From the IMG/VR virus record IMGVR_UViG_3300036792_000158, positions 1-57,504 of that record: a stretch of DNA of 57,504 bases, one strand, 5' to 3'. The translations under genes and the position numbers were made by a program. Within the stretch, counting starts at the first letter, position 1. Every line of letters starts with the position of its first letter. The notes beneath the pieces were generated by a model. It was not told the origin of the DNA, searched no databases, and saw nothing but the letters and a program-made list of their open reading frames with translations. This DNA comes from a virus. Lineage: Duplodnaviria; Caudoviricetes. Below are positions 1,479-57,504 of this stretch, one piece after another.

Positions 1479-1482
1479 GGGG

Positions 1483-4099: not shown

Positions 4100-4143
4100 C
4101 GCCAGCTGCCTCGCGGATGACGGACTCAGTCCTATGATCAAAC

Positions 4144-10287: not shown

Positions 10288-10298
10288 CGCTGGGGCGA

Positions 10299-10784
10299 TT
10301 ACGCGCCGGTGGTGGTGCCGCCGCCGCCGGTGCCGCCGCCGCCCGCCGCTGGCGTGTTTGCGACCACCGCCTGCGACAGCGAAGTGCTGTTCGCGTCGAT
10401 GCCGTCGGCGAGCTGTTGCAGCTGATCCGCCGTCACGGTGCCCGCCGCGGCCATATCCCGAAGTTCCTGGGACAGCTCGCTCAGCAGCGTATTGTTGCTT
10501 TGGATCACCGTCGTCTGCGCGGCGACCTTGCTCTGAAGCGTCTGGAAATCCATCGTCATCGTCTGCTCCAATTGTCTGAGCATCCTTTGCGTCTCCCCTT
10601 CATCCGGGCGGCGACGCTCGCTTTCCGCTGCGGAGGGAGTCGGTGGTGTGGGATCGGCCGGAAGCGAATATCCGGCCGCGGCCAGAGCCTCGATCACGCG
10701 ATCGGCGCGAAGCCGGCACCAGCCGGGCATCGAGTGTTGCGGCGCATCCCAAATGGCCGCGGCGATGATGTCGCGCAGTGGCAT
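10299..10784 (-). CDS. Hypothetical coiled-coil protein
   Basis: Helical C-half with Gly/Thr tail; internal GGAG-ATG at 10559 may be a start. Confidence 0.55.
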   Translation of the reverse strand: MPLRDIIAAAIWDAPQHSMPGWCRLRADRVIEALAAAGYSLPADPTPPTPSAAESERRRPDEGETQRMLRQLEQTMTMDFQTLQSKVAAQTTVIQSNNTLLSELSQELRDMAAAGTVTADQLQQLADGIDANSTSLSQAVVANTPAAGGGGTGGGGTTTGA

Positions 10785-11272
10785 CAGGCGCGCTTCCTTC
10801 TCTTTTGTGCCTTGCGGCTAAGCTCGATCGCCTGCTGGACTGTCACGCTGTCGTCCGGCATGAACGGGAACAGGAATTGATTTTTGATGCGCTGATCGCG
10901 AATGCGCACATTGGTTCGTCTGACGAGCGCGACTTTCGTTTCGACATAGGCGGTCAGATCAGACCTGACCGCGTTGGCGTATTTGATGATCGGCTTTGGT
11001 CCGAGGTCAGAATGTCCGCTGATGTAGGCGGGCGCCGGCAGGCCCGGCAAATCCAGTTGTGACTTTGGCCCTTCGCCGGTCTCCTCTGGATCAAGAATGC
11101 GACGCGTCGCATCGGCGAGCGCGCGAAGATGCCCACGATCTGCCGCGGCGTCCTCGTCTTGGCGAAGTTCTTCGGGGTATAGCTCGCGCGCTACGGCCAG
11201 AATATCCCGCGGCGCGGCTCGACCGCGATCAGTCGCCACGTCGATGCAGTGAAACCATTTAACGGCTTCCAC
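10784..11272 (-). CDS. Hypothetical protein
   Basis: 162 aa, overlaps both neighbours in the operon. Confidence 0.65.
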   Translation of the reverse strand: MEAVKWFHCIDVATDRGRAAPRDILAVARELYPEELRQDEDAAADRGHLRALADATRRILDPEETGEGPKSQLDLPGLPAPAYISGHSDLGPKPIIKYANAVRSDLTAYVETKVALVRRTNVRIRDQRIKNQFLFPFMPDDSVTVQQAIELSRKAQKRRKRA

Positions 11273-12131
11273 GATGAGCCTCCCACAGTCGGGTAAAGTC
11301 CAGAAACCACGCCGCCGCCGCGTCGAAGCTTTTGTCGATCAGCTCGTCGAGATAGCGGCCGGAACCATCGTGTGACGGCAGCGAGGCGATGTAGTCGGCT
11401 GGTGAAATTTCGACAGTGCCGAGCGCCTCGATCGCCTCAATGACCTGGAAATAGACGTTGGTCTGAGCCGCGGCGGCGCGTTCTTCTTCGATGCTACGGC
11501 CGTCGTATATTTTCCCGTCACGAGCCACCACGCCGCGCCCACTCTCCCTCGCAAGCTTCCGCGCGGCGGCCGCCGTCGGGCGTTTCACCAGCTCGCGCTG
11601 CTCCGGTTCCGGCTTGCGTGCTATCTCGGCGGCAGCGCTGACTGCGATCTCACCGCGCTCGACGGCCCCGCCCAGCTCGGGGACGCCGTGCCGCTGCACC
11701 ACCGCTGCGTTTCGGACAGAACGATCACTCACCGAGAGCATTTGCGCCGCGCCGGCTTGCGACACTTTCGGCAAATCTGCCGAAGGTTGAAGGTCCGTGC
11801 GCTCGCCCTGCCGCATGGTGGCGATCCGCGCCGCGACCATCGCCCGCTGGCTCTCGTCGAGATGACGCCGCCGCAGATTTCGCGAGATGACAAAATCGAG
11901 TGGATCGCCGTCGCTGAAAGGCGCGAACCGTGGCGCCACTTCTGCGATCAAGCACGCGCGATAGCGGTTGCGCCCATCGAGAATTTTGCCGTCGAGTAAC
12001 ACGATCTCATCGCGCAACCCTTTCGCGGCAATGTCGTCTGCCAGCTCGATCAATTCTCGCTCTGATAGCAGCGGGAAAATGCTGGCGAGCGGGTGATCGT
12101 CGAGAACGATCAGGCGGCCATCGTCGGGCAT
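11259..12131 (-). CDS. ParB/Spo0J-like N-terminal domain plus HTH protein
   Basis: HPLASIFP, ILDGRNRYRAC, NLRRRHL, QGERTDL, SQAGAAQMLSVSDRSV. Confidence 0.85.
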   Translation of the reverse strand: MPDDGRLIVLDDHPLASIFPLLSERELIELADDIAAKGLRDEIVLLDGKILDGRNRYRACLIAEVAPRFAPFSDGDPLDFVISRNLRRRHLDESQRAMVAARIATMRQGERTDLQPSADLPKVSQAGAAQMLSVSDRSVRNAAVVQRHGVPELGGAVERGEIAVSAAAEIARKPEPEQRELVKRPTAAAARKLARESGRGVVARDGKIYDGRSIEEERAAAAQTNVYFQVIEAIEALGTVEISPADYIASLPSHDGSGRYLDELIDKSFDAAAAWFLDFTRLWEAHRGSR

Positions 12132-12478
12132 CAGGCCGCCTCCTCTCTCGCGGTGGCGTGCGGCGACATCGACCGGCTGCCGAACCAAACCCCGTCGGGT
12201 CGCACGCGGAAGCGATAGCGCCAGTCTTTGATCACCTGCCGCACGTCGCGGCCTTGGCTCCGGGCGACAGCCCTGGCACACGCCAGGGCGCCGATGCAGT
12301 GGCCGCACTCCGCGCGGAGCTGATTGCAGCGGTGACACGATGGCCGCAGGTTCGACGGGTCATCGTCACCCAGCATCGCCTTCGGCAGAATGTGATCGCG
12401 GGTCCGCGTCGCGTCTTTGTGAGCGCGCCGCCTATTCGGGCGGCTCATGCGGCGCCGGCAGTAGGCGCATCGCATCAA
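12131..12478 (-). CDS. HNH endonuclease
   Basis: CAYC..TRDHILPK..NLRPSCHRCN. Confidence 0.85.
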   Translation of the reverse strand: MMRCAYCRRRMSRPNRRRAHKDATRTRDHILPKAMLGDDDPSNLRPSCHRCNQLRAECGHCIGALACARAVARSQGRDVRQVIKDWRYRFRVRPDGVWFGSRSMSPHATAREEAA

Positions 12479-13110
12479 TGCACCTGCTGATTGTCGCCGC
12501 TCCCACCGGCTTCACCCGCCGCAGCGGCAGGCTCGCGGCTCTTCTTGCCCGACCCGCGCGGCCGACCGCGCGGCCGCCCGCCGTTGGCGCCGGCGGCTCG
12601 GGCCGCCTCGGCGGCGCCGGGCGTCTTCGCCGTGCTGGCAGCGATCTCGGCCTGGCCGCGCAGCCAGGCGGTGTCCCAGCGGGTGTAAGCCTCGGTGCCC
12701 GGCGTGTAGGAATTGCTGTCGCGCCGGCGCCCGCCCTTCCCGGCCTCGAACCCTTCGTTGTCGATGCGCTTCAGCTCGTGGATGTTCAGCGCGGCCACGC
12801 CGGGCTCGTCCGTCTCCAAATCCATCGACGCCTGGAAGCCGACCGGCTTGTGCCGCCAGGCCATCATGCGCCGATACCAGGTCTCCTCGTGCTCGCGGAT
12901 CTCGCCCGACTTCTCGGAATCCTTCCGGGTGCGGTCGAACGCGGCGAGCGGGATGCCGGCGGCCTTGATCGACGCGCGCAGGTTCTTGCGGGCGTCGACG
13001 GCCGCCCGAACCTCGTTATCGGCGTCGGCGTAGCGGTCGAGAAATTCGAGATACGTCGCCTGCGTTACGTTGGAGCCCGGCATCTGCCGGCTCGCCAATG
13101 CGTCGGCCAT
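12475..13110 (-). CDS. GapR(DUF2312)-like protein with Rmf/CrpP-like motif and AT-hook-like tail
   Basis: RKNLRASIKAAGI helix pattern; GFEAG..NSYTPG..WDTAWLRG; GRPRGRPRG. Confidence 0.6.
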   Translation of the reverse strand: MADALASRQMPGSNVTQATYLEFLDRYADADNEVRAAVDARKNLRASIKAAGIPLAAFDRTRKDSEKSGEIREHEETWYRRMMAWRHKPVGFQASMDLETDEPGVAALNIHELKRIDNEGFEAGKGGRRRDSNSYTPGTEAYTRWDTAWLRGQAEIAASTAKTPGAAEAARAAGANGGRPRGRPRGSGKKSREPAAAAGEAGGSGDNQQVH

Positions 13111-13140
13111 ATGAGCCCTCCCGTGGGTGGGCCGACGTCA

Positions 13141-13413
13141 TCAAGCACCCGCAGAGCGATCGGCGTCGCCCGGCGGACTCCATTGGATGATGGCGTCGGC
13201 TTTGATTTTGTTTCCGGCCGCCTTGAGCAGCTTTCGCGTCATGGCGAGCGAAGGTTTCAGCGTGCCAGCCTCGATTCGGCTGATCGTGCTGGTCGTTACG
13301 CCTGCCCGGCGCGCCAGCTCGGCCATTCTCATGTCGTTGTTTTTCCGCCGAAAGGTGGTCAGCGGGTGCTCGCCTGCGAGGGGTTGGCCGGGCTTTTCCG
13401 AGCGGTCGGGCAT
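13141..13413 (-). CDS. Cro-like XRE HTH regulator
   Basis: MAELARRAGVTTSTISRIEAG..PS; divergent from the CI-like gene; start uncertain. Confidence 0.8.
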   Translation of the reverse strand: MPDRSEKPGQPLAGEHPLTTFRRKNNDMRMAELARRAGVTTSTISRIEAGTLKPSLAMTRKLLKAAGNKIKADAIIQWSPPGDADRSAGA

Positions 13414-13422
13414 GGCCGCGAG

Positions 13423-13516
13423 GTTGCTATCCATGAAATGACGAGTCAAGCGTCATTGCATCAGAAGAAACGAGTCCTCGAAAAATCGTTTGACAACTCG
13501 TTGCGTGCCGCGCAAC
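13423..13516. promoter_or_regulatory. Divergent switch promoters with three 17-bp operators
   Basis: TTGACT (minus 13449-13444), TTGACA (plus 13490); sites 13423-13439, 13455-13471, 13500-13516. Confidence 0.75.
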
Positions 13517-13546
13517 ACACGGGCGGGGAACTCGCGGCAATGGGCA

Positions 13547-13873
13547 ATGAAGCGCTTTAAGAAATCGGGCACCCCGCTGCCTCACTACATGCGGGCATGG
13601 CGCGAGGCCCGAGGCATCTCGCTAGACGAGATGACGCGCCGGATCGGGCTCTCGAAACCGTCGCTCAGCCGGATCGAGAACGGCAAAACGCCGTACTATC
13701 AGGACGTGCTTGAAGCTTACGCCGAAGTATTAGATTGCACACCCGGCGATCTATTGACACGCAAGCCCACCGACCCGGAAGAACTGTGGGCGGTCTGGGA
13801 TACGCTGCGGGAGGAGGCCAAGCCCGTAGGGATTCGCCTGCTGAAAGCGCTGGCGGCAAACGGCACCGGATAG
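13547..13873 (+). CDS. CI-like XRE repressor without S24 peptidase domain
   Basis: AWREARGISLDEM..LSRIENG..LDCTPGDLL; 108 aa. Confidence 0.82.
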   Translation: MKRFKKSGTPLPHYMRAWREARGISLDEMTRRIGLSKPSLSRIENGKTPYYQDVLEAYAEVLDCTPGDLLTRKPTDPEELWAVWDTLREEAKPVGIRLLKALAANGTG

Positions 13874-13918
13874 GGCCGCCGAAACCCCTCAAATTCTACG
13901 ATATTTTTTCGCCGAACG

Positions 13919-13935
13919 GTTGCATCGTGAGAAAC
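13919..13935. promoter_or_regulatory. 17-bp operator-like site
   Basis: GTTGCATCGTGAGAAAC. Confidence 0.6.
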
Positions 13936-13996
13936 GATCAGCGTAGCGTGAGGCGCCCCGAAAGGGCCAAAGAACCGCAAGCGAGGGAGCGCCCCC

Positions 13997-14287
13997 ATGT
14001 CCACCGCCGACGTCGCCGAGGCTCGTTTCGACGCAATCCCGGGGCAAGGATTGGGCCCCCTGCCAGCGCATCTGCGTCGCGTCCGGGATCTGGTCGCCTT
14101 CGCCGATCGCATCCCCGAGCATCGGGTAATGTCTGCCATCAGCGAATATGGCCGGCGCCTCGGTGATCTGCCCGCCGAAGGGGTCGAGAATCAACGGGCG
14201 CGTTATCTCGTCGTGATCGGCGCGCTTGTAAATCGGGCCATGTTTGAGCTGCTGCAGCTCCCCCGAGACGCCAATCATGTTCTCTGA
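13997..14287 (+). CDS. Hypothetical protein
   Basis: GAGGGAG RBS; 96 aa. Confidence 0.65.
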   Translation: MSTADVAEARFDAIPGQGLGPLPAHLRRVRDLVAFADRIPEHRVMSAISEYGRRLGDLPAEGVENQRARYLVVIGALVNRAMFELLQLPRDANHVL

Positions 14288-14291
14288 TTGA

Positions 14292-14341
14292 TTTTCGTTG
14301 GGTGCAACGACGGGGCTTGACATCGTTTCCTCTGACGCAAC
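14292..14341 (+). promoter_or_regulatory. xis-int promoter with two operator-like sites
   Basis: TTGACA 14317; TTTTCGTTGGGTGCAAC 14292-14308; GTTTCCTCTGACGCAAC 14325-14341. Confidence 0.7.
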
Positions 14342-14380
14342 AACATCGGGCTCTCTCCGTCCCCCACGGCAGAGCTGCGA

Positions 14381-14692
14381 ATGCCCGATACGATCGAAGA
14401 CATCGCCCCCCGCTGCGCCAGCAGCGCGCTCCCGTCGAGCCTGCCGCCGCGCGGTCTGTCGCGGCTGCAGGCGGCGGAATACATCGGCGTCGGAGTGACG
14501 AAATTCGATGAGATGGTCGCCGACGGCCGGATGCCGAAGCCGAAGCGGATCGACGGCCCGACCCGCGATGCGCCGAGGCGCACCGGCCGCGTGATCTGGG
14601 ATAGGGTGCAGCTCGACGAGGCGTTCTCGCTGCTAGATCAAGATCCCGAGGTCGAGACCGCGTCGGGCGGCAATAAGTGGGACAAGCTATGA
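14381..14692 (+). CDS. Excisionase / AlpA-like recombination directionality factor
   Basis: PRGLSRLQAAEYIGVG..FDEMV..GRMPKP..RVIWD; overlaps the integrase start. Confidence 0.8.
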   Translation: MPDTIEDIAPRCASSALPSSLPPRGLSRLQAAEYIGVGVTKFDEMVADGRMPKPKRIDGPTRDAPRRTGRVIWDRVQLDEAFSLLDQDPEVETASGGNKWDKL

Positions 14693-23462: not shown

Positions 23463-25170
23463 TTACCCGATCCCCGACGCCTCGTTCGCGAGCCATATCG
23501 CGATGCTCGGTAAGACCGGCAGCGGCAAGTCCAACGCCGCCGCCACGCTGGTCGAGCGGCTGCTGTCTCGCAAGGAACGCGTCTGCATCATCGATCCGAC
23601 CGATCGCTATTGGGGGCTGCGCCTCTCGGCCGACGGAACGAAGCCGAGCCGCTTTCAGCCGGTGATCTTCGGCGGCGCGCACGGCGATCTGCCGCTGGCG
23701 GAACAGCACGCGCGCACCATCGCCGAGGTTGTCGGCACGACGACGACGCCGACGATCATCTCGACGCGCATGATGACGGTGGGCGAGCGCACGCGCTTTT
23801 TCACCGGCTTCGCGGAGACGCTGTTGCGCACGAATCGGGGCGCGCTGCATCTGGTGATCGACGAGGCGCATCTGTTCGCGCCGCAGCAGGGCGCCAGCGG
23901 TGGTCGGGATCTTCCGGCGCTGCTGCACGCCACGAACAATCTGGTGAGTCTCGGCCGGGGCATCGGGCTTCGGATCACGCTCATTTCGCAGCGGCCGGCG
24001 AAGCTGCACAATGACTCGCTCGGCCAGGTCGAGACGCTGATCGCCTTCCGGCTGCTGCTGCCACACGATCGCTTCGCCGTCCGATACTGGATAAAGGAGT
24101 GCGCTGATGAGAAGATAGGCGCCGACCTGCTGGCATCGCTGCCGTCGCTGCGCACCGGCGAGGCGTGGGTCTGGGCCCCCGGAGCCGACGTTCTGGACCG
24201 TGTTCATTTCCCGCTGGTTTCCACCTTCGACAGCGGCAAGCCGGTGCCTGACGGCCAGGGCCCGACGCTGGCGCCGATCGACCTAGCGGCGCTGCAGGGC
24301 CAGCTTGAAGCGGTTGCGAGCGAGGCGCTGGCGAACGATCCCGCTAGGCTGAAGCGCCGCATCGCCGAGTTGGAAGCCGAGGTTCGCCGGCGACCCGTGA
24401 AGCCCGAAAATCTCGACCAGGTGCTCGCGGCGCACGACGAGGGCTATCAGCAGGGCTACCGACAGGGCCGGGCCGAGCAGCTCGCCGAGGACGAGCGGCG
24501 CATCCGCGACCGCCAGGCGGCGATCGAGGCGGCCGCCAGGGCGCTCCATCTGTTCATAGGCCCCAACGCCGACGACGCGCCGGCGGCGATCCAGGCGCCG
24601 CCATCGAGACCAGATCGGCACGGCTCAGCCGAGGGCGCGTCCCCGCGCGTCCAGCCGAGGCGAACCCCACCGCCGAAGCGCCGATCTGGCCTATCGCTGA
24701 ACGGCGGCGAGTCGACTCAACTGCCGAAGGGCGAGCGCGCGGTCCTGATCGCCATCGCCCAGCACCCGATCGGCGTTACGCGCCAGCAGCTCACGCTGTT
24801 GACCGGCTACAAAAAGTCGAGCCGTGACGCCTATGTCTCGCGACTTGCGGCGAAGAATTTTGTCATCGCCGACGTCGGCCGCTTCTTCGCGACCGCGGCG
24901 GGGATCGCCGCACTCGGCGATGATTACGAGCCTCTTCCGACCGGCGACAATCTGCGCGCCTGGTGGATCGACAGGCTGCCGGAAGGCGAGCGGAAGGTGT
25001 TGGAGACGATCGTCGGCTATTATCCTGATCTGGCGGAACGCGACGAGATCAGCGACGCCACCGGCTATAAGAAATCGTCTCGGGACGCGTATATCTCGCG
25101 CCTGGCCGCCCGCGAGCTGGTGATCGCGACGCGCGAGGGCGTGCGCGCCGCGGAGGAGCTGTTCGGATGA
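23455..25170 (+). CDS. HerA/FtsK-like (DUF87) ATPase with two C-terminal wHTH-like repeats
   Basis: GKTGSGKS, IIDP, LVIDEAH, SQRP; TGYKKSSRDAY twice. Confidence 0.85.
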   Translation: MADYPIPDASFASHIAMLGKTGSGKSNAAATLVERLLSRKERVCIIDPTDRYWGLRLSADGTKPSRFQPVIFGGAHGDLPLAEQHARTIAEVVGTTTTPTIISTRMMTVGERTRFFTGFAETLLRTNRGALHLVIDEAHLFAPQQGASGGRDLPALLHATNNLVSLGRGIGLRITLISQRPAKLHNDSLGQVETLIAFRLLLPHDRFAVRYWIKECADEKIGADLLASLPSLRTGEAWVWAPGADVLDRVHFPLVSTFDSGKPVPDGQGPTLAPIDLAALQGQLEAVASEALANDPARLKRRIAELEAEVRRRPVKPENLDQVLAAHDEGYQQGYRQGRAEQLAEDERRIRDRQAAIEAAARALHLFIGPNADDAPAAIQAPPSRPDRHGSAEGASPRVQPRRTPPPKRRSGLSLNGGESTQLPKGERAVLIAIAQHPIGVTRQQLTLLTGYKKSSRDAYVSRLAAKNFVIADVGRFFATAAGIAALGDDYEPLPTGDNLRAWWIDRLPEGERKVLETIVGYYPDLAERDEISDATGYKKSSRDAYISRLAARELVIATREGVRAAEELFG

Positions 25171-44109: not shown

Positions 44110-44138
44110 GAAGGCGGCACTTCCCAGGTGCCGCCTTC
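44110..44138 (-). terminator. Hairpin after the protease gene
   Basis: 11-bp perfect stem GAAGGCGGCAC/GTGCCGCCTTC with loop CTGGGAA; no U tract. Confidence 0.45.
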
Positions 44139-50081: not shown

Positions 50082-50620
50082 TGCCCCGGATAAGTCGCAA
50101 TTTCCCGACGGCGCAGCCGAGCGGAAGCCAGCACTACACGGTGGATTTCACCGGCTATCTGCCGGCCGGCAGCAATCTCGCCTCGGCGGTCTGGGATCTG
50201 TCCGTTGATCGGACGCTTTCCGGCTTCGCACCCGATTCGAGCCCGAATGCGCGCAAGATCGGCGCGCCCGCGATCGACGGGAGCACGAGCACCCAGGAGA
50301 TCGGCGGGACGGTCGCCGGCAACGATTACGTGGTGACGGTGACGGGCGCCACGGACGCCGGCGACGAAGTGGTGCTGTGGACGATCCTGCCGTCGCGATC
50401 GGCCGGCAGCGCGGGAGTGACCGTTGACGATCGCGTGCGGCGGCTCGCTTCGATCGAGCGGGCGCGCGACAGCGGCGTGCTGACGGTGCGGCACGGCGAC
50501 ACCCAGACGACGTTCCGCACGCTGGCCGAAATGGACGAGATCATCTATCGGCTGCGCCGCGAGATTTACGGCATCAATCAGACGAAGCGCTTGCGCATCC
50601 TGACGACGAAGGGCCTGTGA
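50081..50620 (+). CDS. Ig-like adaptor domain fused to gpW-like head-tail joining domain
   Basis: N-half YTVDF..SAVW..GG..AG.DY.VT; C-half ARDSGVLTVRHGD..TFRTLAEM. Confidence 0.7.
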   Translation: MPRISRNFPTAQPSGSQHYTVDFTGYLPAGSNLASAVWDLSVDRTLSGFAPDSSPNARKIGAPAIDGSTSTQEIGGTVAGNDYVVTVTGATDAGDEVVLWTILPSRSAGSAGVTVDDRVRRLASIERARDSGVLTVRHGDTQTTFRTLAEMDEIIYRLRREIYGINQTKRLRILTTKGL

Positions 50621-51252
50621 TGCAGAGCGGGCGCCGGATACATCGCGGCCAGAACGGCGCAGCGCGCCGGCCGCGCCAGGGGTTGCCGCCCGGGTTCAAG
50701 ATGGCGACGAAGATCGTCCAACGCTCCACGGCGTCGCTGCTGCCTTATGCGCGCAACGCCCGCGTGCACAGCGAAGCCCAGCTCGACGCGCTCGAACGGG
50801 CGATGCGGCGGTTCGGCTTCGTCACGCCGGTCGCGGTCGATGACGCGGGCGGCATCTGGGCCGGGCACGCCCGCGTCATCGTCGCCCATGATCGCCTCGG
50901 GCTTACGCGCGTGCCGACGATCGACATCAGCTACCTGAGCCCCGAAGAACGGCGCGCCTATGCGCTCGCCGACAATCAGATCGCTCTGCTGGCGAGCTGG
51001 GACGAGGAGCTGCTGACCGGCGAGCTGGCCGATCTACAGCTGGGCGGCTTCGATCTCGACGCGATCGGCTTCTCGGATGCGGACCTGGCCGGGCTCGGCG
51101 TCGGCGGGCCGGGCCAGCCCGGCGACGCGCCGCGCGAGAAGGTGCCGTCCTCGTGGGCGGTGGTGGTCGAGTGCAAAGACGAGGCCGACCAGGTGGCGCT
51201 GATCGATCGCCTGCAGGCCGACGGCTACAAGGTGAAAGGTACGATCGGATGA
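50617..51252 (+). CDS. ParB/Srx-like protein
   Basis: PYARNARVH..FGF..P..AGHAR..LADNQIA..WD..LL. Confidence 0.88.
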   Translation: MMQSGRRIHRGQNGAARRPRQGLPPGFKMATKIVQRSTASLLPYARNARVHSEAQLDALERAMRRFGFVTPVAVDDAGGIWAGHARVIVAHDRLGLTRVPTIDISYLSPEERRAYALADNQIALLASWDEELLTGELADLQLGGFDLDAIGFSDADLAGLGVGGPGQPGDAPREKVPSSWAVVVECKDEADQVALIDRLQADGYKVKGTIG

Positions 51253-52385
51253 AGATCGACATCACCCGCGAATGCGAGGTCGAGCGCAGCGCGCGCGTCG
51301 TGCAGGTGGCCGGCATGTTCGATGTCGACGTCGGCGACAAAAGCCGCGTCCACATCGCCGGCGAGCTGCCGATCGAGGAGCGCGAGTGGAACATCGGGCT
51401 GATCGTCGGGCCCTCGGGCTCGGGGAAGTCCAGCGTCGCCCGCGAAATCTTCGGCGGCGCGCTCGTCACCGGCTATGACTGGCCGGCCGATCGCAGCATT
51501 CTCGACGGCTTCCCCGACATCGGGATCAAGGAGATCACCGGGCTCCTCAACGCCGTCGGCTTCGGCTCGGTGCCGAACTGGCTGCGGCCGTTCCATGTTC
51601 TGTCCAACGGCGAGCAATTCCGGGCGACGGTCGCCCGCGCGCTCGCCGAGACCCGCGATCTGGTGGTGATCGACGAGTTCACCAGCGTTGTCGATCGCCA
51701 GGTCGCCAAGATCGCCTCTCACTGTGTCCAGAAGGCCGTGCGCAACGCCGGCCGGAAGCTGATCGCCGTAGCATGCCATTACGACATCCTCGAATGGCTG
51801 CAACCGGATTGGGTGTTCGAGCCCCATCTGGCGGCGTTCGAATGGAGGGAGCTTCAGCGACGACCCCAAATCACCGTTGAAATCCGCTCTGTTGGTCGAG
51901 AGGTCTGGCACCGATTTAGCCAGTATCACTATCTGACCGCATCGCTGAACCCGGCCTCGTTCTGCGTCGGCGCGTTCATCGAGGGGAAGTGCGTCGGGTT
52001 CTGCGCCATCGCGAAGTTCCCGCATCCGAAGGCGCACAACATCTTCGCCGAGCATCGGACGGTGGTGCTGCCCGACTATCAGGGGCTCGGGCTCTCGCGC
52101 GCGATGACGGAATGGATCGGGCGGCACCTGTGGGAGCGCGGGTTCCGGTTTCATGCGGTGACGTCGCACCCGGCGATCATCGCGCAGAAGGCCAATTCGC
52201 CGCGTTGGAGATTGATGCGACATGGCACACAAAGCCCCGGCGGGCGACGAGCCGACCCCGGCTTCAAAAAGCACCAAGCCAAATTCAGCGAACGGCGGAT
52301 TTCCGCGGCTTTCGCCTACTGTGCCCCTGACGGCACACAGACAAGCCACAAACCCGAATGGTCCGGGCCGCTGCTGGGGCGATGA
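51249..52385 (+). CDS. ABC-type ATPase fused to GNAT acetyltransferase
   Basis: GPSGSGKS, LSNGEQ, VIDEFTS, CHYD; HYL..RTVVLPDYQGLGL. Confidence 0.88.
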   Translation: MKIDITRECEVERSARVVQVAGMFDVDVGDKSRVHIAGELPIEEREWNIGLIVGPSGSGKSSVAREIFGGALVTGYDWPADRSILDGFPDIGIKEITGLLNAVGFGSVPNWLRPFHVLSNGEQFRATVARALAETRDLVVIDEFTSVVDRQVAKIASHCVQKAVRNAGRKLIAVACHYDILEWLQPDWVFEPHLAAFEWRELQRRPQITVEIRSVGREVWHRFSQYHYLTASLNPASFCVGAFIEGKCVGFCAIAKFPHPKAHNIFAEHRTVVLPDYQGLGLSRAMTEWIGRHLWERGFRFHAVTSHPAIIAQKANSPRWRLMRHGTQSPGGRRADPGFKKHQAKFSERRISAAFAYCAPDGTQTSHKPEWSGPLLGR

Positions 52386-52448
52386 CGACTGGATCGAGGA
52401 GCTGATCGGTCGGGCCGGCGCTCCGCGATGACGCCAAAGCGGCGGGCG

Positions 52449-52811
52449 CTACTTGCGCCCGCCTCGCACGATCGACGGCGGCGGGTAATCGTCCGCGTGG
52501 CGTTCCGGCCAGACCCCGGTGTTGAGCCACTGCCGACACGCGCGATTCATGTAGGGGTCGAGCCCCGGCAACTCGTCATAAATGCGACAGAACTCGATCA
52601 CGCGCCATACGCCCTCGATCTGCGCGTCTGTGACGACGGGCTCCTGCTGCTGCTGTTGTGCCTCGCTGAGATCCGGCGGCTTCGGCGGGATGAGCGCTTC
52701 GGCGCCGAGGGCTGCGGCCGTCAGGCCGAGCAGGGCGCCGAGCAGCGTGGCGGCGGTGGCGATCGGTACTCTCATGCGCGCGATCGTCGCGCGAAATGGT
52801 TGCCAGACCAT
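52449..52811 (-). CDS. Secreted or membrane-anchored hypothetical protein
   Basis: Hydrophobic N-region, two Cys; start uncertain. Confidence 0.5.
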   Translation of the reverse strand: MVWQPFRATIARMRVPIATAATLLGALLGLTAAALGAEALIPPKPPDLSEAQQQQQEPVVTDAQIEGVWRVIEFCRIYDELPGLDPYMNRACRQWLNTGVWPERHADDYPPPSIVRGGRK

Positions 52812-52908
52812 TACCGACTCCCCGACAAGATCAGCAGGATCAGAAGCAGCGCCGGCAGCGGGTAGCGCAGCGCGAGATAGACGACGACGCCGACGGCGAG
52901 GGCGATCA

Positions 52909-53451
52909 TCAGGCGGCCTCCTCGTCCAAGGGCCGCTGCACCGCGCCGCCGCCGCTCTCGCTCGACACGACGCGCCCGGCGTCATAGCCGAAGGGGAAGC
53001 GCCAGCCCGGCTCGGCGCAGACCCAGATGTGGTAGGAATTGGCCGTGTCCATGAGTCGACTCTCGGCCGGATACAGCTCGATCCCCTCGCACTCAGGGCC
53101 GACCAGCTCGTTTTTAATCCGCTGCATGTCGCGCCAGTCGCGGATCGGCGCGCGATCGAAGCGACGAATGGACAGGTGCACCACGGGCATTTCCCCGCCG
53201 GGCCCGCTCAGCCAGCGCCGCCGATGCACCGTGTATTGATCGTTTTTCCAAATCTCGCTGTTCTCGGTCTCGTCCATGAGGTTCGCGCGGACTTGCTCGG
53301 CCGTGACCTCGGGGCAAATTCGTCGAGCCATCGCGATGTGCTCGGCGATCTGCGCTTCGGTCAGCGGCACGCGCACCCCGCGTTGGAGCGGCACCCAGCC
53401 ATGTTTCGCCTTGGCCGCGCGTCGTTGCTTTCGATTGAGCGTCTGTTTCAT
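52909..53451 (-). CDS. Hypothetical phage protein
   Basis: HLSIRR..DWRDMQRIKNEL.G.E..E.YP..H.W; ACAGGAGA RBS. Confidence 0.8.
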   Translation of the reverse strand: MKQTLNRKQRRAAKAKHGWVPLQRGVRVPLTEAQIAEHIAMARRICPEVTAEQVRANLMDETENSEIWKNDQYTVHRRRWLSGPGGEMPVVHLSIRRFDRAPIRDWRDMQRIKNELVGPECEGIELYPAESRLMDTANSYHIWVCAEPGWRFPFGYDAGRVVSSESGGGAVQRPLDEEAA

Positions 53452-53553
53452 GGTGTGATCTCCTGTGGGCAGAGCGATCGACCCAATCCCCAGGATTTTA
53501 GCGAAATCCGGGGACTTTCCAGCGGGTCGACGTTGCTTATAAACGATATGCGC

Positions 53554-53570
53554 GTTGCGTCATAGACAAC
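53554..53570. promoter_or_regulatory. 17-bp operator-like site
   Basis: GTTGCGTCATAGACAAC within a longer palindrome. Confidence 0.6.
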
Positions 53571-53730
53571 GCGCGATCCCGTCTAGGGCCGAGCGCCCCT
53601 GAGCGGGTCGGGGCTTCGAGCGCATTCCCAGCGCGCCCCGATCGCCGATCGCGCTAGGCGCCCGCCCCTCGCCCCCGCAGACGCGATCCCGTCGCGGGCC
53701 AGCGTCGCCGAGCTGGGGGTAAGCTGGGGC

Positions 53731-53753
53731 GCGCTGGGGAGCGTCCCCAGCGC
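53731..53753. terminator. GC-rich hairpin after the ASCH gene
   Basis: GCGCTGGGGA-GCG-TCCCCAGCGC. Confidence 0.45.
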
Positions 53754-54124
53754 TAGCCCGTCTCCCTCGCGCTCCCTGCGCCCCGATAGACGCGAAGCCC
53801 GATCAGCGCGAGTTCAGCATCGGGGGAAAGATCGGGATAGACGCGTTCGAGCGAAGCCCGGGCGCCCTGGATTTGAGACAAACACGGGTCGCCCGCCCGC
53901 ATCACGTCGAAACTCAAGACGCGGGCGATAAGCGACGGGTGCAGCTTGATGTTGAAATTCGGAGCGATCCGCACCCAGCGCCCCGGGTAGTACGCTTTGC
54001 GCGTGAAGGGCGCGCGGTGCAGGCGATATTCGATCGTCTTCCGGCCGGCCTCGTATTCGTCGTAATAGCAGCGCTTCACGACAATGAGCGGGAAACGCCC
54101 GTTGATCGGCGGGTTGTCGTTCAT
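53753..54124 (-). CDS. ASCH/PUA-like protein
   Basis: YYDEYEAGRKTIEYR (GxKxxExR); ATGA overlap with the HTH gene. Confidence 0.72.
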   Translation of the reverse strand: MNDNPPINGRFPLIVVKRCYYDEYEAGRKTIEYRLHRAPFTRKAYYPGRWVRIAPNFNIKLHPSLIARVLSFDVMRAGDPCLSQIQGARASLERVYPDLSPDAELALIGLRVYRGAGSARETG

Positions 54125-54339
54125 GGCGTCTCCATTTCTCGGGCGACATCGCGCTCGAATTTCAGCGCCAGCGCCGCGAGGGCGACGGCGCGCGGGATCC
54201 TGTCGAGCGGCGTGCCGCTGCTGGTCACGCCCTGCTCGTAGTAGCGATATGTGCGAATGTTCACGTCGAGGCGTCGCGCCGCGCTGGTCTGCGGCAAGGC
54301 CATCGCCTCGCGCCATTGCTTCAATTCGTTTGCGGTCAT
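54121..54339 (-). CDS. Small XRE HTH protein (Aca-like)
   Basis: MTANELKQWRE..QTSAARRLDVNIRTYRYYEQG..IPRAVALA. Confidence 0.82.
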   Translation of the reverse strand: MTANELKQWREAMALPQTSAARRLDVNIRTYRYYEQGVTSSGTPLDRIPRAVALAALALKFERDVAREMETP

Positions 54340-54412
54340 CGGCGTCTCCGATTATCTGAAAGCCCTCTGATGGTCGCGCGTCGTCTCCTGTGGCGCTCGG
54401 CCGACGGGGCAA

Positions 54413-54443
54413 GCGGCGGGGGCTGTCCAGAGCCGCCCGCCGC
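54413..54443 (-). promoter_or_regulatory. CUGGA-loop hairpin
   Basis: Minus strand GCGGCGGG-C-GGCT-CTGGAC-AGCC-CCCGCCGC, then ACAGGAGA. Confidence 0.72.
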
Positions 54444-54451
54444 AACCCCAC

Positions 54452-54729
54452 TCACCACCCGAATCGCCACGCCGGCCAGTCGTCGCAGTCGTCGCCGGAG
54501 TCGTTATTCAGGACGAAGCGCTCGATCTCGCGAATTGTCTGCAATGGCGTCCCTTCGGGCGCTTGCGTGTCGATCAGCTGCAGCGGCGCCTCGTCATCAA
54601 CGACGACGCGCACAACGCGCATCGCGCCGCCGTCATCGCGCTAGACGTTGACGTAGAGCGGGACACGGCACTCGACGACGGCTTCGGATGGGACTTGGTA
54701 GGGCGATGCAGCTTCGGATGGGACTTCAT
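54452..54729 (-). pseudogene. Disrupted small gene (frameshift plus in-frame TAG)
   Basis: RBS and ATG 54729 out of frame with a protein-like frame that is interrupted by TAG at 54641-54643. Confidence 0.5.
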
Positions 54730-55148
54730 GCTGCAATCTCCTTGATGCGCGTCTCGCCCTCGCACGCGCCCTCGCAAACGGCGTGGTCGAACACGTTCTG
54801 CAGAACCCATTGCTGCTGCTCCACGTCCCATTCTGCCCACGCGTCGCGCAGCACGTCGTCGCTCCCGCACGTCGCGCAGACCATCTTGATTCGCGCGCGG
54901 GGCTCGGGCGCGCCGAAGCCGAAGAACGCCCGCGGCGGCTCGGCGAGAAGCGCACGATCCATCAGCGCCGTTCGGAAATTCGGCCCGTCGGCGAAGCACG
55001 CGTCCAGATGATTGCTGACGATCGCCGCGAGCGCGGCGCGGGTCGCCGGCGGGTGCGCTTCGAGCCGGTCGAGCACGAGCGCGGGGTTTTTGTCCGTCCA
55101 CATATCCGCCAGAACGCGGGCCTGGCGGGCGAGCATGTCACGATCCAT
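54726..55148 (-). CDS. Hypothetical protein with Zn ribbon
   Basis: CATCGSDDV.RDAWAEWD..W..C...C; CAGGAGA RBS. Confidence 0.78.
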   Translation of the reverse strand: MDRDMLARQARVLADMWTDKNPALVLDRLEAHPPATRAALAAIVSNHLDACFADGPNFRTALMDRALLAEPPRAFFGFGAPEPRARIKMVCATCGSDDVLRDAWAEWDVEQQQWVLQNVFDHAVCEGACEGETRIKEIAA

Positions 55149-55169
55149 TTTCGGTCTCCTGCTGTTGAG

Positions 55170-55187
55170 CGGGCGATCCAGCGCCCG
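55170..55187 (-). promoter_or_regulatory. CUGGA-loop hairpin upstream of RBS
   Basis: Minus strand CGGGCG-CTGGAT-CGCCCG ... CAGGAGA. Confidence 0.75.
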
Positions 55188-55238
55188 AGTGCTGGCGCAC
55201 TGTGACGCGGCCGGGCTCGCCGGCCGCGCTGCACTACG

Positions 55239-56396
55239 TCAGCTGTTGATGTTGATGATCTCGCCGAACGGCGCGCTGCCGCGCTGCGTCGCGCACCACA
55301 AGACGGGATAGGGCGGCGGCGGGCCGAAGTCGGCGCATTCAAGATCGGTGAAGTAGATCAGGCAGTCGGGGTCGAGCCCCTTGTCCCTGACCCATTCGAA
55401 CACGGGCGAGAACATCGTGCCGCCGCGGCCGGCCATCGTCATCGCCCGGATCGGATAATCGTCGGGCTCAAACGCCGTCGTCGCGCTGATCGCTGTATCG
55501 CACTCGACGACGTGCACCACGTCGGGCTGGACATCGTTCGCGATCGTGTTCAGCTCGGCGAGCGCCTGCGCCAGCGCTTTCGCGTCCATGCTCTGCGACG
55601 TGTCGATGGCGAACACGATCGTTTCGATCTTTTCGGAGTACAGCGAGGGCAGATAGAGCCCCTGCGCGATGTAGCGTCGATTGGGCGGGAGCCAGCTGTA
55701 ATCCTGCTGGGCGCGCGACGTGACGAAGCGCTTAAGCGCCTCGCGCCAGTCGACGCGGGCGCCGCGCATCGCTTCGATCATTTCGGCGACACTGCCCGGA
55801 AGATCGCCCGCCCGCTTTGCGAGCGCCGCGGCCTGCAGCGTCGCAGCTTGCCACTCGCGCGCAAGCTGTTGCACTTCGGCCGCCGGCGCCGGCTTCTGCG
55901 GGTCTTTCGCGTCGGCCGGCCGGGTGAACACGCCGCACCCGCCGACATTGCCGACTTCGGCCCCCTTGCCGCCGCCGCCGCCGCTCTTGCGACGGGGCAG
56001 CTTCGGGTAAATCTCCTCGGCGGCCATGCCGTCGTATTGCGGGTCGACGAGCCCGTCAGGCGGTAGTTCGAGCCCGGCTTTCAACACAAGCGGGTTGATC
56101 GCGTAATCGGCCGCCTCGTTGAACGTCTCATGGTCGCGGCTGCCGATCCGCATCGGGTGCCCCGCGGCGCAGTGCATGACTTCGTGCGCGACCAGGCCGA
56201 CGCGCTGCGCGTGCGTCAGCGCCATCACGAAATCGGCGTTGTAGCGGAGCGCGCGGCCGTCAACGCTGGCGGTCTCCGTCGCGGCATCTTCGAGCATGTG
56301 CAGTCGAAGCGCGAGAGTGCCGAAGAACGGCTGCGCCAGCACCAGCGAGGCGCGCGCCTTGAGCATTGCCCGCTGGGCGGGCGTCATCGTCGACAT
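55239..56396 (-). CDS. HEXXH metallopeptidase plus VWA (DUF2201-like)
   Basis: AHEVMH, NEAADYAIN, DTSQS MIDAS, GRGGT.F, YFTD. Confidence 0.88.
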   Translation of the reverse strand: MSTMTPAQRAMLKARASLVLAQPFFGTLALRLHMLEDAATETASVDGRALRYNADFVMALTHAQRVGLVAHEVMHCAAGHPMRIGSRDHETFNEAADYAINPLVLKAGLELPPDGLVDPQYDGMAAEEIYPKLPRRKSGGGGGKGAEVGNVGGCGVFTRPADAKDPQKPAPAAEVQQLAREWQAATLQAAALAKRAGDLPGSVAEMIEAMRGARVDWREALKRFVTSRAQQDYSWLPPNRRYIAQGLYLPSLYSEKIETIVFAIDTSQSMDAKALAQALAELNTIANDVQPDVVHVVECDTAISATTAFEPDDYPIRAMTMAGRGGTMFSPVFEWVRDKGLDPDCLIYFTDLECADFGPPPPYPVLWCATQRGSAPFGEIININS

Positions 56397-56426
56397 GGGT
56401 AAATCTCCTGTTTCAGAAAAGAGGAA

Positions 56427-56448
56427 GGGCGGCGTTCCAGCGCCGCCC
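56427..56448 (-). promoter_or_regulatory. CUGGA-loop hairpin with pyrimidine tract
   Basis: Minus strand GGGCGGCG-CTGGAA-CGCCGCCC-TTCCTCTTTT..AAACAGGAGA. Confidence 0.78.
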
Positions 56449-56453
56449 CGTGA

Positions 56454-57326
56454 TCACGCCATCGCGTTCTTAATCTCGGCCAGGATCGCTTCGGCGTTCT
56501 GCGCCACTTCCTTGCGCACCGTCGCGTTCTCGCGCAGCACCGTCGCGTCGATCTGGCAGAGTTCATCGTTGAGCCGGTGCCGCATATCCTCGAGCATGTT
56601 GTTGCCCGTGATGTTGAGTTTCGGCAGCAGCTCGACGAGTTCCCGAATGTTCGTGACGAGCGAGTCGCGGAAGGCGTTTTTGACCTTCCCGTTCGAGTCG
56701 ACGGAGTAGTTTTTGAGCCGCTCCACCATCCGCTCGACCGCTTCGAACATCCGCTCCCAAACGTGTTGCATCGCGCCCTCGACGGCCTCGTCAAGCCGCC
56801 CCTGTATCTGTTCGCGGATGCGGGCGTTCTCGGCATCGGACAGCGACACGCGGAAGTCCTCGGCCTCTGGCATCGGGGCGATCTCAACGGTCATCGCGAA
56901 CATGCCCGCGATGTCGCTCGCGGCGGGGTAATCTTCCGGCCTGAACAACCCGTTGAGCGATCGTTTCGCCTCGTCCACATACGCGGGATATTCGCGCGCG
57001 AAGCCGGCGACCGCCTGTTCGAACAGCGCCTTTAAATCGTTCTGCTGTTGCATGTAGTCGAAATAATTGGCCGCGGGCAGGATCCGCGCGCCGTCGTCGA
57101 GCCACGGCAACGTGTTCTCGTAATGATGATGACGGGCGCGCGTCGCGATCTGCGCGATTTCTTCGAGTCGTTCCTTCGCAATCAGGCGCTTTGAATAGCG
57201 CCCCATCGTCGGGTCGGCGCCGTGTTTCTTCGCCACTTCCTCGGTGATGTTCTTGTCGTGCTTCGAGGCAGACCAGCGCGAGATTTTGAGGCTCGCCAGC
57301 ATTGCTTTATCGGTGACTACGCTCAT
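56454..57326 (-). CDS. DUF3150-like helical protein
   Basis: LKISRWSA..K.L..TLPW..GARILP..DYP; lies between the AAA and VWA genes. Confidence 0.7.
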   Translation of the reverse strand: MSVVTDKAMLASLKISRWSASKHDKNITEEVAKKHGADPTMGRYSKRLIAKERLEEIAQIATRARHHHYENTLPWLDDGARILPAANYFDYMQQQNDLKALFEQAVAGFAREYPAYVDEAKRSLNGLFRPEDYPAASDIAGMFAMTVEIAPMPEAEDFRVSLSDAENARIREQIQGRLDEAVEGAMQHVWERMFEAVERMVERLKNYSVDSNGKVKNAFRDSLVTNIRELVELLPKLNITGNNMLEDMRHRLNDELCQIDATVLRENATVRKEVAQNAEAILAEIKNAMA

Positions 57327-57358
57327 TCGATTTCTCCCGTTTGAAGATGGAAAAGAGG

Positions 57359-57383
57359 GCGGGCGGGGTTCCAGCCCGCCCGC
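57359..57383 (-). promoter_or_regulatory. CUGGA-loop hairpin with pyrimidine tract
   Basis: Minus strand GCGGGCGGG-CTGGAAC-CCCGCCCGC-CCTCTTTT..AAACGGGAGA. Confidence 0.78.
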
Positions 57384-57504
57384 GCCCGATCAGCCCATCA
57401 AGTCCGCGTTGTCGGCGGCGAAACGCTGAAACGCTTTGGTGTGCGTGACCATCTGATCGCGCGCCGCCGCGTCTTTGACGCAATAAAACGCGTACTCTTT
57501 CGGC
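57366..57504. repeat. Terminal direct repeat, copy 2
   Basis: Duplicate of 1-139. Confidence 0.95.

Follow-up and report, generated by a model that had tools for sequence, protein, structure and literature searches.

What reads, if anything does, a hairpin whose stem changes from copy to copy while its loop stays the same? The question is raised by IMG/VR virus record IMGVR_UViG_3300036792_000158, a soil phage of the Caudoviricetes (Duplodnaviria) whose full 57,504 nt, referred to here as the window, include a minus-strand operon of accessory genes punctuated by seven hairpins with the loop CUGGA(N). A first-pass annotation made from the letters alone had proposed that these hairpins are selected single-stranded structures, fixed in loop and free in stem, which stand before ribosome-binding sites (RBSs) and are read by a protein, possibly one encoded by the operon itself. 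The first part of this proposal is borne out by conservation across genomes, compensatory changes and a concerted switch of the loop, and the second part gains associative support for one of the two proteins that had been named. Three further phages have the device too, together with one small regulator gene, and it is therefore probably an undescribed RNA control signal. The reading favoured here, tentatively and somewhat short of even confidence, is that the hairpins are intercistronic RNA operators that a trans factor would read through the loop.

The hairpins (hp1 to hp7 in operon order; Table 1) occupy seven of the eight junctions between non-overlapping genes of the operon, and all are present on the minus (coding) strand as annotated, save that the limits of hp4 are 56426-56449 and not 56427-56448. 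The stems of the seven copies share no sequence, while the loop is CUGGA(N) in every copy. hp1 to hp6 are each present in the minimum-energy fold of their own gap, and in five of the seven gaps the hairpin begins 3-8 nt past the stop codon (4 nt at hp1). hp1 and hp2 have common flanks as well as a common loop, including the upstream context GATCTAACCC that had been noticed at first sight, and their stems differ with full compensation. A pyrimidine-rich tail follows hp3 and a U/C-rich tail follows hp4, a second hairpin with the loop CGAGC lies in the same gap as hp5, and hp7 is an expanded variant (minimum free energy (MFE) -32.3 kcal/mol, z -2.54) in which CUGGAAA forms a 7-nt bulge between two helices. 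The hairpin end is separated from a ACAGGAGA-type Shine-Dalgarno (SD) motif by 2-21 nt (2 nt at hp1). ACAGGAGA itself is confined to the minus strand, where five of its six copies lie directly 3' of a hairpin; the RBSs of genes elsewhere in the genome are of the GGAGG type. An RBS after each hairpin had been claimed, and this is found except at hp6, in the leader of a gene for a helix-turn-helix (HTH) protein. This leader (54384-54443) consists of hp6 and a small GCGC/GCGC hairpin that holds an orphan ACAGGAGA in its loop; no ATG, GTG or TTG is in reach of this copy, which is therefore not a working RBS.

A mechanical scan identifies five perfect hairpins with the loop CUGGA(N)(N) in minus-strand gaps, compared to 0.47 +/- 0.70 (maximum 3) in 500 dinucleotide shuffles, none of which reaches five; equal frequency in shuffled sequence, which the first-pass annotation had named as fatal to the motif, is thus not observed. 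Other GC-rich pentamers also reach five to eight loops genome-wide. The CTGGA count is by itself not unique, and the weight therefore lies in seven independent junction hairpins that share one loop. The exceptional features are the confinement of all of them to intergenic gaps within a single ~6.7-kb operon and the recurrence of one pentamer in seven independent loops. With the probability of CTGGA taken as ~0.001 from base composition, the six further loop coincidences amount to ~1e-18 by hand arithmetic. Under a relaxed definition the background is 91 matches per 4.85 Mb of strand (0.19 per 10 kb). Within 1.2 Mb of other phage loci, CUGGA is the loop of none of 254 hexaloop and none of 224 heptaloop hairpins (stems of at least 7 bp), and CUGAAA occurs once. 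When a CTGGA-loop hairpin is required to precede an SD motif and a start codon, such arrangements are absent from 475 of the 500 other locus-strands, and there is one on each of 24 and two on a single locus-strand, compared to five in the window and 6-7 in G309, a related genome described below. The element had been thought to match no described Rfam family, and Rfam 15 indeed gives no match at gathering thresholds over the whole window; in E-value mode, three chance-level matches (E 1.3-3.2, far below gathering) appear in 52300-57504 and none in 1-2400. Literature searches on conserved-loop intergenic phage hairpins and on CUGGA phage hairpin loops return nothing on the motif, the novelty of which rests on this limited search and on Rfam.

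Whether the hairpins are more than a local peculiarity is best judged from relatives, for which loci bearing the AAA-DUF3150-VWA gene triad of the operon are compared (39 + 7 + 1 + 32 + 7). Most triad-bearing phages are without the CUGGA motif, and many have other structured elements at the same junctions. The hairpin family is found in three further genomes (G001, G309 and G312), on the sense strand and before SD-like motifs. G001 (L048/L080) is 62-64% identical to the window in the AAA and DUF3150 proteins and has hairpins at three of five junctions (ahead of the AAA gene, at the AAA/DUF3150 boundary and ahead of the HTH gene), all in minimum-energy folds, with the loops CUGAAAAA, CUGAAA and CUGAAA in that order; the two remaining junctions carry a different duplicated element. 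G309 (L132/L133), found by aligning the ASCH-like protein of the operon, has nine hairpins with the loop CUGGAA or CUGGAAA, nine of nine on the sense strand, which are located before AAA, between AAA and DUF3150, between DUF3150 and VWA, after VWA, and ahead of the HTH gene as well as of four small genes. All nine precede GAAAGGA and a start codon, the sequence after the hairpin reading ACA..GAAAGGA. The window and G309 have only module genes in common, with no structural genes shared at E <= 1e-5. G312 (L178) was found by a DNA pattern from the hairpin and not by protein: a scan of IMG/VR with CGGCGCTGGAA(N)CGCCG returns at least 119 single-match stretches, mostly chance, and gave L178 and a further fragment, L153. 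Four copies in G312 are present in MFE folds (one with a bulged C) and a fifth, before the HTH gene, in the centroid fold only; the loop is CUGGAA, and GAAAGGA follows all copies. The SD-like motif is 3-22 nt past the hairpin in G309 and G312. Homologues of the DUF3150 protein at 65-85% identity exist, and the relatives from the metagenome scan and the first viral scans are at most 62% identical.

Comparison of orthologous copies indicates that the hairpin structure is conserved across genomes through compensatory changes. At the AAA/DUF3150 junction, the arms GCGGGCGGG/CCCGCCCGC of the window and GCGGGGCGG/CCGCCCCGC of G001 differ by two flipped pairs. The hairpin before the HTH gene has a build common to the window, G309 and G001 (8 bp, a bulged C, 4-5 bp and a hexaloop; Table 1); by hand count, all 12-14 pairs and the bulged C are kept in the three genomes, and two-sided changes occur at three of the eight outer pairs (3, 6 and 7). 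The loop is uniform within each genome, being CUGGA in the window, G309 and G312 and CUGAAA(AA) in all three copies of G001, such that the window and its nearest relative, G001, differ in the loop at one position in three of three orthologous copies. A concerted switch of this kind is expected if a cis site co-evolves with its reader, and drift would not give such a pattern.

A covariance model had been suggested as a check and was built in part. R1 comprises the four 6-nt-loop hairpins of the window and is too small for database-scale searching; it is limited to 6-nt-loop copies, and orthologous pairs are counted by hand, because MAFFT placed the loop-length gap at the end. RNAalifold likewise missed the main hairpin of the HTH leaders as the loop gap was misplaced in the alignment. 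R1 scores hp1 at 24.8 bits and hp4 at 28.1 bits (both training members), and ranks the held-out copies hp3 and hp2 sixth (18.3 bits) and ninth (14.6 bits) in the window. On 95 kb of other genomes, its top five matches are family hairpins in G309, G312 and G001 (26.2-20.0 bits), while a 20-kb stretch of G003, a relative with the triad, gives a single match with E 0.79.

In the favoured reading, the hairpins would be cis-acting signals in the polycistronic mRNA of the accessory module, each forming in the gap from a stop codon to the next SD sequence and displaying a fixed six- or seven-base loop, YUGRAN (CUGGAN in the window), on a stem of free sequence. A trans factor that travels with the module would recognize the loop and, in the HTH leader, perhaps also the bulged C. 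One regulator, for which the HTH protein g9 appears the best candidate, would thereby be tied to every cistron junction, and the two-hairpin leader before g9 may be an autoregulatory site. A factor bound 2-22 nt ahead of the SD would, in the simplest case, reduce translation initiation at each cistron or fix its level; it could also alter mRNA cleavage or decay. Action at the RNA level, on initiation or on the fate of the junction, is suggested because the copies stand on the sense strand only, after a stop codon and 2-22 nt before an SD motif. That RNA is the molecule read, that a factor binds it, that this factor is the HTH protein and in which direction it acts are points we infer. A terminator role is not the conserved feature: a simple terminator scan passes only hp3 and hp4 among the seven window copies, these two are the only copies with a U-rich tail, the G309 copies have no U-run and the G001 copies are followed by C-runs. 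Sigma-70-like sites are absent from 52300-57504 and from 1-14500. A DNA operator with CTGGA half-sites was considered and set aside, as one TCCAG-N13-CTGGA (2028-2050) is found, about chance level, and readings of the loop as a sigma-54 or extracytoplasmic-function (ECF) -35 element misfit the 6-nt loops (by eye only).

The operon's HTH and ASCH-like proteins had both been put forward as readers, and the pattern of co-occurrence separates them. When candidate open reading frames of the window are compared to whole records, only the HTH protein g9 and the DUF7694 protein g11 are shared with both G001 and G309 and not with G003 or G004. G312 is without AAA, DUF3150, VWA, ASCH-like and DUF7694 genes but has the HTH gene; thus, a g9-like HTH is the one window protein common to all four hairpin genomes. 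The HTH gene lies downstream of hairpins on the same strand in all four, and the orthologues of g9 are 55% (G001), 43% (G309) and 48% (G312, over 67 residues) identical. By contrast, G003 and G004, two related genomes without a g9-like HTH, have no hairpin family (no CTGGA-loop hairpin on either strand of G003, which is complete at 64.8 kb, and three scattered background hairpins in G004), although both have the AAA-DUF3150-VWA triad together with ParB-like and ABC-GNAT genes. Of the co-occurrences that the first-pass annotation had proposed to check, that with the HTH gene is seen in all four hairpin genomes, and the ASCH-like gene does not track the motif. The match of g9 to Pfam HTH_31/HTH_3 (E ~3e-4, 21 bits) is below the cut-offs of 27 and 23. 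From this association g9 would be the likeliest reader and its own leader the primary site, an assignment that we regard as possible but doubtful.

Other candidate readers fare less well. The ASCH-like protein g10 is not supported as reader, as it is present in hairpin-less G003 and L128-L131 and absent from hairpin-bearing G312; it has no match to Pfam ASCH (PF04266) at E <= 5, and g10 alone as query finds no relatives. At the fold level it resembles five ASCH-bearing clusters (TM 0.66-0.69 for alignments of its predicted model, pTM 0.77), which is a lead only. DUF7694 g11, viewed as a lambda-N-like reader, is absent from G312 and is found in 36 further loci without a constant-loop family; its basic N-terminus and invariant W19 are a family-wide trait, also of phages without the hairpins. 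No fold in the PDB matches the g11 model (pLDDT 78.6) at E <= 0.001, and the sequences of g11, g10 and g7 give nothing useful against the PDB.

Several observations weigh against the favoured reading or its HTH component. Many G309 and G312 copies have stems of 4-5 bp only and z-scores for folding that do not stand out (+0.17 to -1.5; one G309 junction at 0.01), a hairpin-to-SD distance of 2-22 nt is loose for a purely steric repressor, and the element is also a DNA palindrome, which leaves room for a single-stranded DNA reading. Six new loci with distant HTH relatives (35-40% identity) have 0-1 family-like hairpins each, a background level. The L153 fragment (14.6 kb, 59% G+C; record 23% complete) has two strong CUGGAA hairpins of 11-12 bp that flank a small gene (reverse strand, 577-604 and 1080-1109), and it encodes neither a g9-like HTH nor a homologue of any other operon protein. 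The HTH link rests on few independent events because the window, G001 and G309 share the module by descent, with G312 adding essentially one independent HTH-hairpin event. HTH domains, moreover, normally read double helices, while the conserved part here is a single-stranded loop. A bolder form of the proposal, which we consider rather doubtful, is that the HTH gene and the hairpins constitute a portable post-transcriptional regulon that moves between unrelated phages, with a 72-residue RNA-binding protein as governor of the whole operon; g9 would then recognize the hexaloop (CUGGAN, or CUGAAA in the sister phage) whatever the stem, both in its own leader and at as many as nine junctions, irrespective of the genes that separate the hairpins.

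The hairpins could instead be passive intercistronic structures without a specific reader, an explanation that we consider unlikely. They would serve as 3'-end protectors after endonucleolytic cleavage, as weak attenuators that grade expression along the operon or as insulators that stop upstream coding RNA from pairing with the next SD, with the loop retained through common descent or because of its role in folding. The terminator-like form of hp3 and hp4 with their U/C-rich tails suits this account, as do the start of the hairpin 3-8 nt past the stop codon in most gaps, the ordinary hairpins (GNRA or triloops with pyrimidine tails) at the same junctions of L050 and L051, and the structured cassettes that are common before genes in this phage group (G002, L049 and L129-L131; see below). 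Unpaired loops, however, should outpace stems in drift, and here the loop is invariant in seven window, nine G309 and four to five G312 copies and switches in concert in G001. A U-rich tail is found in only two of seven window and none of nine G309 copies, stems of 4-5 bp are poor exonuclease blocks, CUGGAN is not a generally favoured loop (0/254 hexaloops) and the hairpin at the operon end has another loop, AAGUA. A specific reader need not be encoded by the phage: dimers of host CsrA/RsmA may bridge the GGA of the loop and the GGA of the SD and so repress translation of each cistron; the first-pass annotation had noted that CsrA binds GGA loops near the SD. A second GGA is indeed provided by ACAGGAGA or GAAAGGA, in the window at ~15-40 nt downstream of the loop GGA (~60 nt at hp7; hand count), and the working range of CsrA is 10-63 nt between GGA sites. 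A GcrA homologue points to a host that is presumably alphaproteobacterial, and of 301 genomes sampled from the likely host class, taken as Alphaproteobacteria, 62 encode CsrA. This fit extends to the window, G309 and G312 but is weakened by G001, where three of three orthologous hairpins read CUGAAA and have no GGA; the invariant CU before the GGA is not known to belong to the CsrA consensus, 239 of the 301 genomes have no match and the window has no CsrA gene (PF02599), all of which makes a CsrA-type reader improbable.

The loop may also be read by another nucleic acid. By the YUNR rule, a loop that starts CUGG or CUGA may form a U-turn and expose GGA or GAA for fast pairing with a complementary sequence; small RNAs of phage or host, 16S rRNA (at its 3' end) and a tRNA-like molecule are conceivable partners. 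All loops begin Y-U-N-R, the 7-nt loops CUGGAAC and CUGGAAA are laid out like an anticodon loop, and the one-base switch from GGA to GAA is what a changed pairing partner would be expected to produce. Three paired bases are very little, however, and neither a co-varying UCCAG hairpin nor a conserved non-coding block of this kind was found, nor was an anti-loop small RNA; a block upstream of the operon has TCCAG in the window and G001 alike, though their loops differ, and the only TCCAG-loop candidates are weak and within genes. We give RNA-RNA docking a small chance. No better placed is a role at the DNA level, in which single-stranded DNA hairpins extruded during replication or recombination would act as points of cassette swapping, much as PeSLs and integron attC sites do, or would mark where priming or nicking takes place, and which we hold very unlikely. 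A constant loop on a variable stem is also typical of HUH-endonuclease origins. The gene content between hairpins differs among relatives (homologues of the operon genes g1-g3, g7 and g8 are absent from G001, G309 and every other compared locus), the module is common to otherwise unrelated phages such as G309, and the gene complement of the phage includes RecT, a primase and an HNH protein. Yet all copies in the four genomes are in mRNA sense between a stop codon and an SD motif, the conserved sequence of 5-6 nt is too short for homologous exchange and, unlike PeSLs, the stretch 52300-57504 has no promoter-like site. An internal sense G.U pair in one G309 copy and three G.U pairs at helix ends of hp7 tell weakly against a DNA structure.

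The hairpins fall outside the Aca, nut, CsrA, SAS/ESAS and PeSL families and are related to such systems in kind. Similarly to lambdoid N/boxB, they are short hairpins with the specificity apparently in the loop, and the loops are uniform within a phage and differ between relatives. Unlike nut sites, which occur once or twice per genome near early promoters with a boxA partner and act in antitermination, seven to nine sites are found per operon just before SD motifs, without a consistent boxA and with a hexaloop in place of a GNRA-like pentaloop. A lambdoid nut site is rejected, as CUCUUUU is found only at hp3 and hp4 and lies 3' of the hairpin (by eye). The hairpin before the HTH gene resembles the PP7 operator, one of the coat-protein operators of RNA phages, in having a base bulged from the 5' arm and separated by 4-5 bp from a 6-nt loop; the PP7 and MS2 operators, by contrast, are single sites that include the replicase start region, and the other window copies have no bulge. 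With CsrA/RsmA sites the hairpins share the loop GGA and SD GGA of the window, G309 and G312 and differ in the points weighed above.

The closest precedent for an HTH reader is provided by Aca2 and Aca1, phage HTH regulators that bind hairpins in their own 5' untranslated regions (UTRs), with Aca2 blocking the RBS; both recognize the stem, a helix read much like operator DNA (PMC13551039). In common with these systems are a small phage HTH encoded in the operon that it would control, RBS-adjacent hairpins, a two-hairpin leader before the regulator gene and translational repression as the proposed outcome, whereas the Aca stems are described there as conserved and confined to the 5' UTR (PMC13551039). 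In the phages compared here, stems are free, the hexaloop is constant and up to nine cistron junctions are occupied. The Aca2-type mechanism raised by the first-pass annotation does not fit because the stems are not conserved: the seven window stems share no sequence, and copies are found not only in the HTH leader but also between genes further inside the operon. The SAS of Cluster K mycobacteriophages is a SD-containing 13-bp repeat before a subset of non-structural genes, and about half of the SAS have an inverted repeat upstream (ESAS) with conserved 17-bp arms and a variable spacer (PMC3203893). Like the CUGGA hairpins, these elements are start-associated and in one orientation, with a suspected role of SAS in translation (PMC3203893). 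They differ from the hairpins, of which the arms vary and the loop is constant, with a SD motif of 7-8 nt that changes by genome (ACAGGAGA versus GAAAGGA). The PeSLs of T4-type phages are composite terminator/promoter elements with conserved sequence that allows homologous exchange, and they similarly are repeated small structured elements that flank accessory genes, with variable content between them (PMC4122927). Here, no promoter-like site is found, and only the loop and a short SD motif are shared among copies.

If the favoured reading is correct, many unrelated accessory genes could be placed under compact post-transcriptional control by the addition of a hairpin with the right loop before each, and free stems would avoid repeat-driven deletions and misfolding. 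HTH-RNA binding by phage regulators would then widen from a single 5'-UTR helix to a loop-specific, operon-wide code, for which CUGGA and CUGAAA with their respective HTH orthologues form a natural specificity pair. The motif may mark regulated accessory modules in uncultured phages and could serve as an orthogonal part for translational control. Even if the hairpins are passive, an unusual and strongly conserved loop preference would call for explanation.

The operon runs on the minus strand from ~1800, across position 1, to 52449 (~6.7 kb). The window ends, 1-139 and 57366-57504, are identical save for one base (139 nt with one mismatch, 13 versus 57377), and a 57,395-base contig of one public run spans 52449-57504 unbroken with zero differences and no hairpin variants. 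The terminal repeat and the unbroken contig therefore indicate a circular genome of 57,365 bp that was opened inside the hairpin operon, compared to the IMG/VR class for the record, which is linear. Position 13 falls in the 5' arm of hp3, where its base would break a pair; the base at 57377 pairs and matches the run contig, and position 13 is thus probably an assembly-end error. Searches of public sequencing runs for the window DNA list one run, probably from the source sample, with no RNA run among the matches, and deposited phages searched at the DNA level have no match to the window. The phage is temperate, with lambda-like head genes, and has a G+C content of 65.7%. Its genes include those for an integrase, an XRE repressor, RecT, a DnaG-type primase, an AAA_25 helicase and an MT-A70 methylase, together with gpA terminase, a lambda-family portal, an S49 protease and capsid protein E. 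The GcrA homologue (Pfam E 3e-17) adjoins the MT-A70 methylase.

Table 1. Hairpins, operon genes and other elements of the window, with the hairpins that precede the HTH gene in two relatives.
Feature	Position	Strand	Structure or family	Context	SD-like motif after hairpin
79/88-aa gene		-		first in operon, ends before hp1	
hp1	1461-1478	-	GCUCGG-CUGGAC-CCGAGC	between 79/88-aa and 70-aa genes	ACAGGAGA (1451-1458)
70-aa and 61/64-aa genes		-	overlapping	between hp1 and hp2	
hp2	1029-1047	-	GCCCGU-CUGGAAC-ACGGGC	before MoxR-type AAA gene	ACAGGAGA (1017-1024)
MoxR-type AAA gene	25-1014	-	AAA_5, phrog_1297	between hp2 and hp3	
hp3	57359-57383	-	9 bp, GCGGGCGGG-CUGGAAC-CCCGCCCGC	AAA/DUF3150 junction	ACGGGAGA (57333-57340)
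DUF3150-like gene	56454-57326	-	E 3e-4, below cut-off	between hp3 and hp4	
hp4	56426-56449	-	9 bp including one G.U, GGGGCGGCG-CUGGAA-CGCCGCCCU	DUF3150/VWA junction	ACAGGAGA (56404-56411)
Metallopeptidase/VWA gene	55239-56396	-	DUF2201_N and DUF2201	between hp4 and hp5	
Second hairpin in hp5 gap	55206-55228		loop CGAGC	same gap as hp5	
hp5	55170-55187	-	6 bp, CGGGCG-CUGGAU-CGCCCG	after VWA gene	CAGGAGA (55155-55161)
140-aa gene, 103-nt gap, 56-aa gene		-		between hp5 and hp6	
Direct repeat AAGTCCCATCCGAAGC	54681-54696 and 54711-54726	-	16 bp, two copies 30 bp apart	103-nt gap	
hp6	54413-54443	-	12 pairs: outer 8 bp, bulged C on 5' arm, inner 4 bp, loop CUGGAC; GCGGCGGG-C-GGCU-CUGGAC-AGCC-CCCGCCGC	HTH leader	orphan ACAGGAGA (54384-54391)
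G309 hairpin before HTH gene			GCCGCCCG-C-GUCG-CUGGAA-CGAC-CGGGCGGC		
G001 hairpin before HTH gene			GCGGCCGG-C-GGUUG-CUGAAA-CAACC-CCGGCCGC		
g9	54121-54339	-	72-aa XRE-type HTH	after hp6, overlaps g10	
g10	53753-54124	-	ASCH-like	then 301-nt gap with two further hairpins and hp7	
Hairpin after g10	53731-53753		10 bp	directly after g10 stop codon, 301-nt gap	
Direct repeat GACGGGATCGCG	53572-53583 and 53682-53693	-	two copies	301-nt gap	
hp7	53478-53530	-	expanded variant: outer 9-bp helix, inner 12-bp helix, CUGGAAA bulge (53516-53522)	before DUF7694 gene	ACAGGAGA (53459-53466)
g11	52909-53451	-	DUF7694	after hp7; then two small overlapping genes, end 52449	
Operon-end hairpin	52441-52463		loop AAGUA	operon end	
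TGACGCAACG(Y)GCGC element	~1766-1790	-			
TGACGCAACG(Y)GCGC element	~1925-1945	+			
TGACGCAACG(Y)GCGC element	53550-53574	-	8-bp hairpin		
Conserved non-coding block	~1820-1890	-	GGTCCACCCGTCCAGCGGTTCAA.CCCGC...CAGCGACGAGCCCG	upstream of operon	
GcrA homologue	7683-8408	-		adjoins MT-A70 methylase	
MT-A70 methylase	7018-7776	-			
ParB-like and ABC-ATPase/GNAT genes	50617-52385	+			
Near-variant hairpin	44110-44138	-	11 bp, GAAGGCGGCAC-CUGGGAA-GUGCCGCCUUC	head operon	
Antisense hairpin	24581-24603	-	8 bp, loop CCUGGAU	within plus-strand HerA-like ATPase gene	

Two hairpins outside the operon have similar loops. A near-variant in the head operon, between the S49 protease gene and the next head gene, has a loop that is one G longer than the operon motif and no ACAGGAGA after it. 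The other, antisense within the HerA-like ATPase gene, ranks fifth in the window with model R1 (19.5 bits) and may be chance or an antisense element. Repeats of other kinds are present in the operon itself. The direct repeat AAGTCCCATCCGAAGC occupies the one operon junction without a CUGGA hairpin, and a second repeat, GACGGGATCGCG, shares the 301-nt gap after the ASCH-like gene with a hairpin that directly follows the stop codon. The element TGACGCAACG(Y)GCGC has three copies, close to where the two parts of the operon begin; it resembles an operator or promoter, and one copy is itself a hairpin. A conserved non-coding block upstream of the operon is also found in G001 (locus L080, ~5535-5600, plus strand); it includes a tRNA T-arm-like GGTTCAAACCCGC and may represent a small RNA or a cos-related element. 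The ParB-like and ABC-ATPase/GNAT genes accompany AAA-DUF3150-VWA in G001, G309, G003 and G004 at 25-69% identity, as a larger mobile module.

Structured elements before genes take other forms elsewhere in this phage group. One strand of the terminally repetitive phage G002 (93.5 kb) contains 24 copies of AACAGGAG, and 22 of them fall within 16 kb (L087, 67500-87000, reverse strand). Nearly every copy is preceded by a cassette of ATGTTTCT, a variable GC hairpin, AGAAGCAT..GCTTCA and ACAGGAGGAG; the cassette is PeSL/SAS-like with complementary covarying outer arms. Of 22 ACAGGAG sites in G002, 21 have a hairpin. In L129-L131 (~700-5300, plus strand), CTGCAATGGAG(A/C)CC stands before many starts, each time after a variable-loop hairpin, as a further start-associated motif. 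L049 (plus strand) has a large repeated hairpin at every gene junction, with conserved arms (GAAGCCACTCG...CGAGTGGCTTTC) and an end 2-3 nt before the ATG, and it also has hairpins with UUUGGAAC loops.

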